From a candidate division SR1 bacterium (GTDB lineage Bacteria; Patescibacteriota; Gracilibacteria; Absconditabacterales; Absconditicoccaceae): a DNA stretch of 64,000 bases. The notes below the pieces were generated by a model that did not search any database, was not told where the DNA came from, and was given only the letters and a program-made list of their open reading frames with translations. A program made the position numbers and the translations under genes. The stretch is from NCBI GenBank assembly GCA_007115995.1, contig SKJI01000007.1, positions 8,989 to 72,988 of the forward strand, given 5' to 3'. Of this stretch, positions 45,173 through 52,953 are shown one piece after another (the first letter of the stretch is position 1; every line of letters starts with the position of its first letter).

Positions 45173-45201
45173 TTGACAAATAAAGTATTGACGTGTATAC
45201 T
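45173..45201 (+). promoter_or_regulatory. Strong sigma70-like promoter candidate (TTGACA-N17-TATACT)
   Basis: ttgaca 45173-45178 and tatact 45196-45201, 34 nt before ATG 45235. Confidence 0.45.
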
Positions 45202-45234
45202 ATAGATAAGTTGTTCTTTTACTCAAGACATCAC

Positions 45235-48200
45235 ATGGTTGATACGATACGATGCAAAAATCAAATATGACTACTTCATCAGCAATATCCTTGATTGATC
45301 AATAGTTTTTCTCGTTTTACACAACAAGCATGGTGAGACTATAAGGAGTTTTGTTTGCATGATTTTTGATCGACTGTTGCGATTAGAACGTTTTTGTTAA
45401 ATCCTTGAGATTTTCAATTTGTGGCAACAAATCATCTATGAGAGCATGGGTCATGAGAACATGGAGCTGCTGATGAGCACTCAGTTGAGGGTGAAGAAGG
45501 GACTGTAATACTACAAGAATCGTCATGATCATTTAATGATTTTTGGGATTGACTGTGAGATAATATGTGATCATTTTTTTCTTTTGCCTTATGGTTTATT
45601 CTCTGAGCGATTATTACTATTTCATTATTTAAAGCTATCAAATACTTTTTGGTTTTGATGTATGATGTCTTTAATGCAAAGAGAATTGAATACTTCAAAG
45701 TAATCCAACCTAGATGAGACTCGAAACTTGATCGTGAAGTCCAAAGAGAACTTGCAAAAGATATGAAAGAAAAGATTTCCAGAATGGCTCAAGTCTATGC
45801 AAATGTTCATAAATTATGAGAATTGAGTGTTGTTGATGGTATTTTGAGGAGATTATTTAAAAAGCCCAAAATTACTTTTTTGTTACACTATGAAAAATGA
45901 AAAATAGAGTTTATCATCGGGACATATCCAGAATATAGAAAAATTGTAGAATCAGCGATAGCAGCGCAGTATTCAGATTCTTCATTACAAACGATTGAAA
46001 AACCTCATTTCTTCTCTCATCAATATAGCGATCTCATGCCACTTCAACCAATAAAAGAGTGAGTCTATCCAATTAGAATGTTTAGACAAATGGAAGATGA
46101 CCCGATTAATAATATTATCGATTCGATGGCCAAAATTCCTCAATCTGACACCTTTACAATGATGTTAACGGTAAGACCTGAAAGATGAGCTTTTAATCAA
46201 AGAGCACAAAAATTTGCAGATGCACTGTATAGAAAGGATGATTCTGTAACAAAATGAACAAGATTTTTTCAGTATTTGCTACCTTGGAACTTATTGAAAT
46301 TTCTCACAAGATGACCAAGTGAGGAGTTGGTACAAAGATTTACTGGTGACAAGACACGTTGAGATCCTATGATTCGTATGGTCAAGGCAGAAGAAGAAGC
46401 ACTCAATAATATGGCAGAAGAAGCTGGTAAGAAAGCATTTTATTCATGACTGATGCTTTTATCGAGTTCGCCACAACCAAAAAAAGCAAGAGAAAATATT
46501 TATAATTTGGTCAGTGCGTTTACTGTGTATAGTGATGAGTACAATAATGCATTAGATCAGCCAGAAGTGCTGTCTGATATTTTTGGCGTGATTGTGAAAC
46601 CATTATGGAGAGCAAGTATTACGTTTTTGATTCCGTGATTTTTTTATAAGAAAAACGTTTTTTCTGTGAGTGAACTTGCATCATTATTCCATCTCCCTGA
46701 TGGGATGTACAATCGTTCACCGGCAATTTCTTGGATGGATTACAAAATGCTAGCACCACCTGATAACTTACCGCTGCTCAAAGAAGAAAATCCTGATTTC
46801 TTTATGACATGAATTATTGCTGAATCGTACAAATGATGAAATATTTCCAAGATTTTATCTGACAAAATTCATCCAGCAGTGTGAATCAAAGAGGAAATAC
46901 ACGAAGAGAAAATTCCAGTCGATGCATCGTACGTCTTACAAGAGTGAGAAGAGTTGCGTGAGGAGGATGACTCGCTTTATGTGATACGCAAAACAACAAC
47001 AAAAAAAGCAGCACTCAAGATCTACAATGATTGAATCTTGTTATGATTGAACGTGTATAGGAATAAGTTTTCTCCGGTCTATATGAAGCAAAAAGATAGA
47101 ACGAGACATCACTATATTATTTGAAAATCGGGTACGTGAAAATCGGTCTTTATCGCTGCGCTTGCAAGACAGGATATCTGGGCAAATGCATGAGTCTGCG
47201 TTGTTGATCCGCATGGTGATTTGGTAGAGGGAATTTTGGAGTATGTACCAAAACATAGAGCAAAGGATGTGATATATTTCGATGCAGGAAATGCTGAGCG
47301 TCCAATGTGACTCAATCTGTATCAAGTAAAATCGTTTAATGAGGCAGATAGAGTCGTCAACGATGCTGTTGAAATTTTCATCAAGATGTTTGGTCCAGAG
47401 ATTTTTGGTCCGCGTATCCAAGAATATTTTAAGTATGGAAGTTTGACGTTGTTGGAGGATATGGAAGATAGAGCGACACTGATCGATGTGCCAAGGTTGT
47501 TTACTGATGAGTGATATAGAGAGTACAAAATTGCAAAAGTAAAAAATCCAGTGGTCAGAAACTTTTGGGACAAAACATATAACGCAATGGGTGATCGTGA
47601 GAAACAAGAAATTATTCCATATTTTACTTCGAAATTTGTCTCGTTTACCACAAACTGACTGATTAGAAACATTATCGGACAAACTGAATCAGCATTCAAT
47701 TTTAGGGATGTAATGGATAACTGAAAAATCTTATTGATTAACTTAAGTAAAGGTATGATTTGAGAGCTGAATGCACAGTTGTTATGAATGATTATCGTGT
47801 CCAAAGTGTATAATGCTGCTATGGGAAGAGCAGATATGGCAGAAAAAGATCGTAGATTCTTTTACTTATATGTGGATGAGTTCCAAAACTTTGTAACTGA
47901 TACGTTTGCAGATATTTTATCTGAAGCAAGAAAGTATAAGCTTTGTTTGATTATGGCACATCAGTATATTGCACAGCTTGATTGATCAGCATGAAACAAT
48001 ATCTGAGAGTGAAAGAGTAAAGTGAAGGATGCGGTATTTGGTAACGTTTGAACGATGCAATCATTTAAAGTCGGTGCCCCAGATGCAGAGTTTTTGGAAA
48101 AGGAATATGCTCCTGTGTTGAGTGCGCAAGATATTTTGTGAATTGCAAACTACAAAGCATATATAAAACTGAATATCAACAATACTACCTCAAGAGTATT

Positions 48201-48441
48201 TAGTCTCAATGCATTATGGACGCAGGATTATAAAAATGAAAGAGTTGCAGAGATTCTAAAACAATACTCAGAAAAGAAATACGGACGTAAGAGAGAGTTT
48301 GTCGATGCAGAAATTGCAGCCAGGTTGTGAATACTTGGTGATAATCATGAAATTCCCTGAGTAGATGACTTACAGCTTGAAAGTGATACTGCATGAGACA
48401 CAGAATCAGAGTCTGATTGAGATGAGAATCAATCAGAATAA
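45235..48441 (+). CDS. Large VirD4/TraD-type (type IV coupling protein-like) P-loop ATPase, paralog 1 (1068 aa)
   Basis: TM segment FFLLPYGLFL(G)AIITISLF, Walker A HHYII(G)KS(G)T(G)KSVF, VVDPHGDL, LLINLSK(G).., FFYLYVDEFQNFVTDTFADILSEARKYKLCLIMAHQYIAQL. Checked codon by codon over 46081-47160. An alternative later start (Met near 45565) is possible. Confidence 0.75.
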
Positions 48442-48477: not shown

Positions 48478-48735
48478 ATGTCAATCAATACATTATGAAA
48501 TTATTTAGATGATTGAGAACCAAGAAATCCAGATCTCTATAGTGAAAGAGAAACACCAGAACAATGAAGTGAAAGAGAAACACCAGAACAATGAAGTGAA
48601 AGGGAAACACCAGAACAAGAAATGATAGAAGCTACTATAGCAGATGTTCAATGGGCATTAAGCAATCTAAAAGGTGAAATTCCTGGTTATGATCGTTATT
48701 GAAGGTTAGATAATATAGAATCACTTGATGCATAA
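48478..48735 (+). CDS. Small acidic protein with three SERETPEQ(G) repeats
   Basis: ATG 48478, TAA 48733-48735. Confidence 0.4.
48541..48621 (+). repeat. 27-nt tandem repeat, 3 units
   Basis: agtgaaagagaaacaccagaacaatga x2, then agtgaaagggaaacaccagaacaagaa. Confidence 0.9.
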
Positions 48736-48862: not shown

Positions 48863-49864
48863 ATGACTCCTTATTTGCGTGTAACGTTTTTAGCTTTTTC
48901 ACTCCTTGCTCATATGCAAGAAACCGTGTTGCCTGTAGATATTCTCACAGCAGTTGGAAATGATATACCAGTGATTAAACCACTATTCCAAGCGTTATCA
49001 GATCAAGATGTTTTTCCGCAGAGAATCGTAGTGTTATTGTATGCAGTCAAATCATATGAGGATCATCAGCATTATGAAAAGACGATGCGTGCATGGCTAG
49101 ATCCATCATTGCATCAATCGCTTGTCATTGTATCGTCTTTTACCAGCGATCATGAGCAGTGAAACTATCACGGATATGATAGACAATTTTTGTTGGAATG
49201 CGCAATGAGCCCATGGGTATTTTTTATTGATAGCGACAATAGTTTTGCTCCAAACTTTTTGCGTATAATGCAACATACATATCAGGATATTGCAGATCAG
49301 TATCAACGTCCATGTATTCTCTCACCAAGTATCTATTATGCTCAAACACAGACACTACAATCGCAATGAATCAGTTCGTTTTTTCGATGATTCCCGAAAT
49401 ATCAGTACAATACACTGACTGATCAACAGTATGCACCTGTTCAGATGATAGGGTGAAATTCGTTGTTTGGACCGACAGCACTGTTTCGCACCATATCGTT
49501 TGATCGTCGTTTTGCTTATTGTTATGAGGATGTCGACTATACATTTGGGTTGTATCGTGCATGATTTCCTGTGATAGTGCTGAGAGATATTCATATTTTT
49601 CATCACGATACAAGGCAATCACCACTCCAAAAGCGTTTTTTACATACACCACAAGCAACGCGATATAGAGCAAGAAATAGAATCATTTTTGCAAAAAAAC
49701 ATGCACACGGACGAGCAAGCGTTGCATATTTTGGTTTGGGTTTTTGGTTACAGACTTGTTTGTTTGTTGTACTTATTCTATACTACAAACGACGTCAACC
49801 AAGAACGATGCTCTCTTTACTTACTGCCTTGGTACGTGGTACACGAGCAGGACTGAGAGCGTAG
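48863..49864 (+). CDS. Family 2 glycosyltransferase with a C-terminal TM segment
   Basis: FFIDSDNSF (DxD), FAYCYEDVDY, RNRIIFAKKH. Track ORFs 48863.. and 49571.. share the frame. Confidence 0.7.
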
Positions 49865-49887: not shown

Positions 49888-50826
49888 TTACTCTTCAACC
49901 AGACTATCATGGTGTTGTGCAAAGAGTTCTTTGATTGCAGGAGGAGAGTCATAAGCTGGGAAGAGGAGCTGATTGAGTGCAATAGTGCAATCTATAGTTT
50001 GTGCAATGGCACCATTATTGCTAGCATATGTATCTATTTCAGATTGTGTGTATCAATTTTTTAGGAGTATTGCTGTGATTTCTTCTAATGATGCAAGATG
50101 GTATGAATGTTCTACTTTTCTTCTTGTTTCATCATAAATACGTTTTCAGTCTTTAATAGAAAGAGCTATCTCAAATGGTTTTTGATCTTCTTTGTGAATA
50201 TAATGTACGTCGCTTGTAATGACAATTGCTGTTTGTGTCTCGTGAGCAAGTTGTTTAATAGTTTGATTAACAGTTTTGAGTGACTGATCCTTGTTTTCAT
50301 CGTGTGCACTAATCATACAGTATACTTGATTAGGATGTGTTGCTTGTTTCAGGAGTTGTAAGGTCTCATGTAATTTTTCAGAAGATTCATTGTGCATAAT
50401 AAGTTCTCCAAGCATACTACGAGGTGTTCATATAAGGCAGTATAGATCTGAACCGTATTGTTTGAGTGTTGTGATATCTATTCTTGGGATCTGTGAATAT
50501 CATTCCATTTGTGCAAATGAAATAAGTTCAAGAAGGTCTTGATATCATTTGGTTGTTTTTGCCAACAATACAAGATATCATCATGCATGATCGTTATGAT
50601 TGCGTGCATCATGGACACAAAATAATTCTACGCCAATGAGTGGCTTGATTGAGTGTTTTTCTGCTTTTTGATAAAATTCTATTGCACCGTAGAGACCATG
50701 ATAATCACTTAATGCACATGCATGCATTCATAAATCAGCAGCCTTTTGGAGATATCACTCTGGTGATCATATTGCTTCTAGCAATGAATAATGTGAGTGT
50801 ACATGCAAATGAATAAATCAACTCAT
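49888..50826 (-). CDS. DnaE-type PHP domain protein: the N-terminal ~310 aa of DNA polymerase III alpha, ending at a TAA
   Basis: FIHLHVHSHYSLLEAI(G)SPE, (G)MHACALSDYHGLYGAIEFY, IKPLIGVE, YLVLLAKTTK(G)YQDLLELIS, VITSDVHYI, LLFPAYDSPP. Stop at TAA 49888-49890. The convergent GT2 gene follows. Confidence 0.75.
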
Positions 50827-50907
50827 AACAAAAATATTAATAATCAAAGAGTGTAAGTATATCTATTCTCATATTGAATACAATATTCCATTGAGTATGA
50901 TAGAACT

Positions 50908-52953
50908 ATGTTTAGACAAGTAGGTTTTTTTTCTTTTCTTTTTTTCTTGAAGCTTGCATGCTGATATTTTTTCTCGTTTCCTGTATCTGCATCTACAGTA
51001 GTTTGATCTCTTAATCTACAGACTCGCCAAGAACGATGAGCAGATGAATCATTGAGATATGGAAGATGAGCAACAGTGACAACAAGCTTTAATCAAGAAG
51101 GAGATCAAACTGATTCAACAGCACCACTCAATAATCAAGAAAAAAATATTGTGAGAACAAGATTTCTCCAAGAGCAATTCCCACAATATATAATGCCAAC
51201 GCGTATTGAAACACATGAGTGATCAAATCGTTTGAGATGGCCATTACAGTATACCCCCAAAACATGAATTATATTACATCATACGGCTGATGGATTTGTA
51301 TACGAGTATCCACAACAAACATATCAGTATATTCGTGATATTTATCACTCACATGCTCGCCAAAGAAACCGATGAGATATTTGATATAATTATCTTATAG
51401 ATCCATTTGGCAATACATTTGAGTGAAGGGCTTGATGACCTACTGTTGCATGAGCGCATACTGCATGGAATAATGCAACAACAATATGAGTATCATTGAT
51501 GTGAAATTATCATCTTAGACAACCTTCACAAGCTATGTGGTCTGCACTTGTTAATCTGCTGACATACTTATCTGTAACATATGAAATCAATCCATGAGAT
51601 CGTCACACGTACTTTGAGGCAACAGACCAGTACCCGTTTATTGAAGTACTCAATAATTATGCATTAATAGGGCATAGAGATGCTTGAGACACTGTGTGTC
51701 CTGGTCAGTATGTCTATGCTGAGTTACCATCATTGAGAATGGAAATTATCCAGCGTTTACAACGATTAGATAGTCATGGTATTGAAGAGCTGCAGCTGGA
51801 AAATTTTGTACGTCGTGTAGAACCATTTATTCTATCAGGAGATACTGGAGTGTTGCGGTTTGATCGTCTCAACAATCATGCTGTATCATGCAAAAGTTTT
51901 ACTGCATCACAAGCTATAAGTTCCTGTCATTTGTTATGAGAAAAAATTCTCATCACTATACCGTATGTATGAGCTGGTTCATCTTGAAGACTTTCGTTAT
52001 GAATACAGCAATGACCAGCAGTACAGTTTTTGGATGTAGCTATAGTGTGGGAACAAGAATTTACTGAGTCGTTTTTACAAGATCATAATGCGCAGGTATC
52101 TTCAGCATTGAAACAAGATCAAGCCGTGCCTTTATCAGCACTATGGCATCATATGCAATCACCCATTTCTGTTTTATTGTATCAACCAACCGCTACGCTC
52201 AACACATGGGAATTTAGCTGTACGTGAACATGTACAGTGCTTGCAGGAGAGAGGTTTGTGCATAATCCATCTCATATACGTGTAGCAAAGGCAGGAGATC
52301 AAAGATTACAAATAATTATAGATGATGAGTTGATCTGGGCGCAGAGTTTTGGTATCAGTACTCTCTGATGAGAGATAATATTAGAAAATTTTACAAGAGC
52401 GGAACACTGAACTGCATTAAATAGGTTTCAGTGATCAATAACTATTACGTCTTCAAAACGACAAGATTTACAGTGAATACTTCATGAGTGATTTATTGTT
52501 GTCAATACCCTTGCTTTGGATGAGTATCTCCATGGTGTCTCAGAGTGGTCAGAACACTATACTGATCAAACATTAGAACTATTGGCAATACTTGCAAGAC
52601 AGTTTGCGTTATTATATCGTTCAGGAGCTATAAGGCATCCTGCAATACCACAATGAGTATGATATCATAGTATTGATCATCCTGAACTGTTTCAGTGATA
52701 TGTTTGAATATGACAAAAGGACTATGCTCAAAGACGATGAAGAGCAGTAGAAGCAAGTAGAGGAAAGTATGTCCTTCTTGAAGATAATGCAGTAAGACTT
52801 ATGCCCTTACTTCGCTATAAATCATGACTTTCTAGAGGCACAACTCTTGGGTTACGTGATGTTGATTATTGGTTGCATCAATGAGTATTGGCTCAAAGAG
52901 TGCTTGATCGATTTATGCCTGGTGTAACAATTGTTTCATGATATCTCTTTTAG
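50908..52953 (+). CDS. Secreted N-acetylmuramoyl-L-alanine amidase (Amidase_2/PGRP) fused to a SpoIID/LytB domain
   Basis: IILHHTA, HARQRN[CGA](G)DI(G)YNYLIDPFGNTFE(G)RA(G)(G), (G)AHTAWNN, L(M)(G)NY. Later VVNTLALDEYLHGVSEWSEHY and ARQFALLY. Confidence 0.8.

Follow-up and report, generated by a model that had tools for sequence, protein, structure and literature searches.

Absconditabacterales encode the PHP domain of DNA polymerase III alpha as a separate gene: an intein-free split of dnaE at the PHP-palm linker

In the current view, the replicative polymerases of the bacterial C family invariably include a covalently attached PHP domain. In the DnaE1 protein of Mycobacterium tuberculosis and the Pol III alpha of Thermus aquaticus, it is an active proofreader; in the Escherichia coli Pol III core, it is degenerate, folds alone, and has a structural and docking role, as seen in the structures that combine residues 1-270 of alpha with the C-terminal peptide of epsilon (4GX8 and 4GX9). 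To our knowledge, the role of the inactive PHP domain, as a stabilizer of the polymerase or as a dock for the exonuclease, has until now been approached only by means of engineered mutants and truncations. Intein-free fission of core genes whose polypeptides reassemble is exemplified by the PolB of Methanothermobacter, which is encoded by two genes, and by the split genes of Nanoarchaeum. In the cyanobacteria Synechocystis and Nostoc punctiforme, Pol III alpha comes from two distant genes, both needed for one enzyme, and the break lies around residue 774, much further along the protein than in the case described here. The cyanobacterial halves carry IntN and IntC and are ligated by trans-splicing; this split-intein case is the only split DnaE mentioned in the literature consulted (PMC3919608).

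Members of the order Absconditabacterales (SR1) also encode Pol III alpha in two distant genes but, in contrast to the cyanobacteria, without any intein, with the break at the PHP-palm linker and with the two parts remaining separate chains. The detached domain (referred to below as dnaE-N) shares its fold with the active PHP proofreaders of M. tuberculosis and T. aquaticus, from which it differs by being detached and, together with all its TGA-recoded relatives, by having lost several ligands. Whereas the isolated PHP domain of E. coli is a laboratory construct made from a covalent part of alpha, the one in Absconditabacterales is a natural gene product, and an orthologue of epsilon is not consistently present in the order. 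The two-gene PolB of Methanothermobacter is an archaeal B-family enzyme divided at another domain boundary, unlike the bacterial, C-family dnaE. No prior description of an intein-free split of dnaE between PHP and palm was found in the literature searched, which covered surveys of polymerases as well as the genome paper on Vampirococcus; the sequences themselves are public.

The analyzed stretch of DNA (the window, 64,000 nucleotides) is contig C25 of a 1.0-Mb metagenome-assembled genome (MAG) that consists of 50 contigs and is 94.5% complete. The features discussed here are listed in Table 1. The start codon of dnaE-N, ATG at position 50826, matches the starts of its homologues (M-x-F-x-HLHGHS); an alternative in-frame TTG at 50847 would extend the ORF (49888..50847, minus strand) to 319 aa. 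When read with translation table 11, the frame is interrupted by 11 TGA codons and that reading was discarded; table 25 gives a single ORF in which each of these TGA positions is a glycine in the relatives. In the partner gene described below, TGA likewise encodes every invariant glycine of the GPGRGSxAGS motif. Because TGA stands at conserved glycines, including those of this motif, the genome can be said to use code 25 (TGA=Gly). With TGA read as Gly, all the DnaE PHP/N-terminal motifs that had been recognized in the sequence-only reading are present, and the frame of about 312 aa ending at a TAA at position 49888, noted in the same reading, stands as well. The protein ends with ...AQHHDSLVEE, and its tail is predicted to be helical (helix 303-315, pLDDT 70-84 in the AlphaFold2 [AF2] model). 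The Pfam PHP domain (PF02811) matches residues 13-177 with an E value of 7.6e-35, and the best NCBIfam matches are DnaE models, aligned over model positions 1-293 only. Public records label this N-terminal (N) piece merely as “PHP domain-containing protein.”

Table 1. Coordinates of the two dnaE pieces and of the features around dnaE-N (window positions unless a contig is named)
Feature	Position	Strand	Size	Remarks
dnaE-N, stand-alone DnaE PHP piece	49888..50826	-	312 aa	code 25 ORF, TAA stop included
Stop codon TAA at the fission point	49888..49890	-		inside the PHP-palm linker; read directly in the sequence
C-terminal tail of dnaE-N, FPAYDSPPAIKELFAQHHDSLVEE	49891..49950	-		N-side half of the linker insertion found only in the recoded clade (junction alignment)
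GT2-like glycosyltransferase, convergent downstream neighbor	48863..49864	+		weak Pfam Glyco_trans_2_3 match, E=4.7e-5, below cut-off
Short divergent intergenic region, dnaE-N versus Amidase_2/SpoIID gene	50827..50907	.		ORF map
Amidase_2 + SpoIID protein, divergent upstream neighbor	50908..52953	+	681 aa	Pfam
dnaE C piece, palm-fingers-HhH	C7:10445-13354		969 aa	no PHP domain

The rest of the polymerase, which the sequence-only reading had suggested looking for, is encoded on contig C7 by a gene that lacks the PHP domain. This gene accounts for the only match in the genome to the Pol III alpha palm domain (PF07733, E=1.2e-90), which is followed by the fingers (PF17657, E=1.9e-51) and HhH (PF14579, E=2.9e-19) domains. 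Its product, the C-terminal (C) piece, starts with MNIFEFELRY and retains the catalytic motifs PDIDTDF and KMDVLGL, as read directly in the sequence. The gene is divergent from glmS and is preceded by an AT-rich, stop-rich intergenic region. A full-length dnaE elsewhere, which had been proposed as the mark of a pseudogene at this locus, was searched for with no result: profile searches of this 94.5%-complete genome revealed no full-length dnaE or polC and no other C-family polymerase, and the only other PHP match is an unrelated 238-aa protein of the YcdX/PolX type.

DnaE of this genome is thus encoded not as one polypeptide but by two genes on different contigs, and the two products are complementary. 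The NCBIfam model NF004226 is covered from position 5 to 293 by the N piece and from 297 to 1107 by the C piece, with scores of 171.7 and 755.7 bits, respectively, both under the equivalog cut-off of 1002; the superfamily model TIGR00594 is passed by the C piece only (711 versus the cut-off of 434). In the junction alignment, the end of the N piece and the start of the C piece are collinear with the unsplit homologues, with nothing lost or added. The summed length of 1288 aa (319 aa, counted from the alternative start, plus 969 aa) compares with 1272-1425 aa in the unsplit recoded relatives, and because it is the length of an unsplit relative, an intein is excluded; the earlier remark that no intein was visible at the end of the PHP ORF is thereby borne out. 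Neither IntN and IntC nor the +1 nucleophile that characterize the split-intein DnaE were found.

The order-wide distribution of the split was examined using an intact DnaE from a sister lineage as the query against genomes at least 90% complete (86 genomes from 30 genera). All 86 gave two separate matches, interrupted at residues ∼300 and ∼318 of the query, without a junction-spanning one among the matches listed. In all Absconditabacterales genomes tested, single-contig ones included, the position of the break is identical to the residue. ORF lengths that end at the next TGA cannot prove a split in recoded genomes, and explicit code-25 translation was used. In this translation, the N pieces (n=20) end with TAA or TAG after a homologous tail, LY..K..L[IV], and the C pieces (n=23) start with M[DN]IFEFELRY.SY.GL and are closely preceded by an in-frame stop; 12 further N pieces, including the one from “Candidatus Vampirococcus lugosii,” have the same end. 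Since this stop recurs in dozens of independent genomes, some of them consisting of a single contig, an assembly artefact, which the sequence-only reading had raised as a possible refutation in the form of a break at 49888, can be ruled out. This conservation across the order points to one ancestral fission and, together with the gene on contig C7, upholds the first explanation offered in the sequence-only reading, a split dnaE with the remainder elsewhere. In genome G029, which was considered as an independent split, both pieces merely run off the contig ends.

The distance between the two pieces ranges from 4 to 337 kb. In 24 genera of this family, the two pieces never lie at the same place; in the single-contig genomes among them, the distance is 89-337 kb. 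The shortest distances belong to the two single-contig genomes of genus g44 (G044:C1:298000-308000 and G074:C1:660000-670500), in which both pieces are on one strand and the N piece is upstream by ∼4-4.5 kb. The interpretation of this gap as the scar of an inserted mobile element was rejected, as it contains gyrB (on the opposite strand), a 183-aa HhH protein, and a His_Phos-like ORF and no mobile element.

The order of events can be read from the relatives that have retained an unsplit gene. The TGA-recoded sister families (f21, f28, and f30) have one contiguous dnaE frame of 1272-1425 aa in code 25, and the standard-code relatives (Peribacteria-like) have a single dnaE of 1160-1280 aa. In the junction alignment, all recoded lineages share a 20- to 35-aa linker insertion between the FPxYxxP and EWxLR motifs, as well as a further insertion of ∼50 aa, and both the stop and the new Met of Absconditabacterales are located inside this linker insertion. 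The canonical PHP metal ligands, HHDHEHCDH, are intact in 5 of the 6 standard-code relatives examined and degenerate in all TGA-recoded lineages, split or unsplit. Because the unsplit recoded relatives share it, the decay of the PHP site predates the fission: ligand decay and linker insertion came first and the fission came after.

Two other sequences were considered in the search for intermediates. The standard-code dnaE at L080:4421-7915 (ENA ERZ28563657, ANAN16-1 scaffold_2290) is called as a 302-aa PHP ORF and an 842-aa polymerase ORF. It was rejected as an adjacent-gene intermediate (L080/P0039) because the contig uses the standard code and the two ORFs are a single frame interrupted by one in-frame TGA. 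This TGA sits exactly at the PHP-palm boundary (..DVMTE[TGA]AYQGLEKK..) and could be a sequencing error, a pseudogene mutation, or a read-through codon. The other candidate, P0044, is a fragment.

In the dnaE-N encoded in the window, the ligand set reads H H E Y(H shifted) E Y T D H versus the canonical HHDHEH[C/H]DH, so that ∼6 of the 9 ligands are kept, among them the H-x-H, Glu, and D-x-H ligands. The full set of nine, as in an active PHP 3'-5' exonuclease, is not there. The set varies among 19 other members of the family, some of which lack even the H-x-H. The AF2 model of dnaE-N is a complete PHP barrel (pLDDT 92.3, pTM 0.87), which in Foldseek comparisons matches the PHP domain of Taq Pol III alpha with a TM score of 0.80 (rmsd 1.8-2.0 Å) and the isolated E. 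coli PHP construct (4GX8/4GX9) with a TMt of 0.75. Since it superposes on this isolated construct, the PHP domain can stand alone. The closest matches in both sequence and fold are DnaE PHP domains and not free PHP enzymes: the free-standing PHP phosphoesterases YcdX, HisJ, and RNase AM and the PHP domain of PolX come far down (Foldseek TM 0.29-0.46, NCBIfam E=2e-4), so that dnaE-N falls outside these families.

On average, pairs of sequences are 37% identical in the PHP piece and 57% identical in the polymerase core, and the PHP part is also the faster one in the unsplit relatives. The ratio of PHP to polymerase divergence is 1.47 in the split, 1.57 in the unsplit recoded, and 1.29 in the standard-code lineages, values that come from nonindependent pairs and are descriptive only. 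There are 35 invariant or near-invariant columns among 36 homologues, and dnaE-N appears, from these comparisons, to be under no extra relaxation.

Given the anatomy, complementarity, conservation, and event order of the split dnaE, the following scenario can be proposed. One ancestral intein-free fission of dnaE would have occurred in the stem lineage of Absconditabacterales (SR1, code 25). A cut in the poorly conserved PHP-palm linker would have produced the 312-aa PHP gene, equipped with a start and a stop of its own, and the 969-aa palm-fingers-HhH gene, and both genes would then have drifted apart in the genome. The two polypeptides could be expected to reassociate noncovalently via the native interface between PHP and polymerase, and the catalytically degenerate PHP piece would probably be a structural stabilizer of the polymerase and possibly an exonuclease dock, like the E. 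coli PHP domain for epsilon. A two-subunit Pol III alpha of this kind, in which the PHP chain is bound noncovalently via the native interdomain surface and has a structural role, is likely to be the correct reading. Two observations count against it: the genes for the N and C pieces are not colocated and have no conserved replisome neighbors in common (none were found next to dnaE-N among 20 related loci), and PHP evolution is faster than that of the polymerase piece, although this is also true of the unsplit relatives.

A bolder version, in which the detached dead PHP is a true accessory subunit of the replisome, with its amount or partner set independently (for example, by recruiting the lineage's own DEDD exonuclease), or in which the polymerase piece runs without any PHP, is unlikely. 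If the polymerase piece does run without PHP, this would overturn the view that every Pol III alpha requires a PHP domain. It is possible, though weakly supported, that dnaE-N provides the surface on which a DEDD proofreading exonuclease docks. Epsilon was rejected as a universal partner of the PHP piece, as the orthologues of the DnaQ-family protein are patchy, with clear ones in only 4 of the 24 genera of the family. This 198-aa protein (G000:C50; L078:1486-2082) passes the TIGR00573 model. The genome also encodes a 767-aa protein (G000:C13; L162:310-2613) that combines a DEDD exonuclease domain with an unassigned C-terminal part of ∼500 aa. The course from decay and linker insertion to fission, along with the patchy DnaQ, raises the question of how Absconditabacterales proofread.

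A rather improbable alternative to the two-subunit Pol III alpha is that the detached PHP piece acquired an independent job after the fission, as a free metal-dependent phosphoesterase, exonuclease, or pyrophosphatase or as a regulator, leaving a polymerase piece that works without PHP. The remote location of its gene, with no conserved replisome neighbors, and the H-x-H, Glu, and D-x-H ligands kept in this copy would fit such a change of function, as would the nuclease activity of PHP domains elsewhere, such as those of PolX and DnaE1 (PMC5636811). However, the nine-ligand set is incomplete and freely varying, which is unexpected for a conserved catalytic site; the ligand decay is common to the unsplit recoded relatives and so is older than the fission; and the best matches in sequence and fold are DnaE PHP domains rather than free PHP enzymes. 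A free PHP exonuclease is unlikely because the metal site had decayed before the fission. The separate exonuclease or phosphoesterase that the sequence-only reading had listed as its second candidate thus finds no support, given ∼6 of 9 ligands, a variable set, and a decay that preceded the split.

There is very little chance that the PHP ORF is a decaying relic beside a rearrangement breakpoint. The degenerate active site and the faster divergence of PHP than of the polymerase piece are what a relic would display, but the intact frame, a length of ∼305-330 aa, and the homologous stop are found in every genome inspected (at least 30 genera), the near-invariant residues persist, the PHP/polymerase ratio is no higher than in the unsplit relatives, and the fold is confidently predicted. 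The relic explanation is effectively refuted already, and the truncated pseudogene proposed on first reading has to be rejected with it, there being no full-length copy, with length, frame, and ∼35 near-invariant residues kept across at least 30 genera. It is hardly credible that the halves are rejoined by protein trans-splicing or that the split is an artefact of assembly or binning, which the cyanobacterial split intein as the only split DnaE in the literature consulted (PMC3919608) and the 50-contig MAG might suggest, as there are no extra residues (N ...SLVEE, C MNIFEFELRY) in a junction collinear with the unsplit protein and no Cys/Ser/Thr context for a +1 nucleophile, and single-contig genomes show the split as well, carrying the N and C pieces on the same molecule.

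An entire order with a separately encoded PHP domain since before its genera diverged represents a natural experiment on the role of the inactive PHP. The PHP-palm linker can be viewed as a permissive split site, and the two pieces as natural parts for split-polymerase engineering. In practical terms, annotation of DnaE, as well as completeness and marker checks, can mis-score the dnaE of Absconditabacterales, with each piece under the equivalog cut-off and the N piece vaguely labeled. The arrangement should be of moderate interest to specialists in replication and in the CPR.

The glycosyltransferase that the sequence-only reading placed next door in convergent orientation is indeed there, weakly GT2-like, with a gap of 24 bp from its end to the stop of dnaE-N, and such a neighbor recurs in 5 of the 20 related loci. 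The Amidase_2 + SpoIID gene occupies the same neighbor position in 7 of the 20. The intergenic region between the latter gene and dnaE-N is the presumed site of the promoter for a monocistronic dnaE-N; a scan for consensus promoters and terminators performed no better than chance. Further away in the window, a 1082-aa ORF with 48 TGA=Gly codons (45193-48441, plus strand) combines VirD4/TraG/TrwB-type coupling-protein and HerA-like P-loop domains; its product is a coupling ATPase of type IV secretion that has a long extension at the N terminus. Directly after it lies a small ORF (48478-48735, plus strand) with three tandem copies of SERETPEQG, a repeat that reads as SGVSLSLHC, also three times, on the opposite strand.
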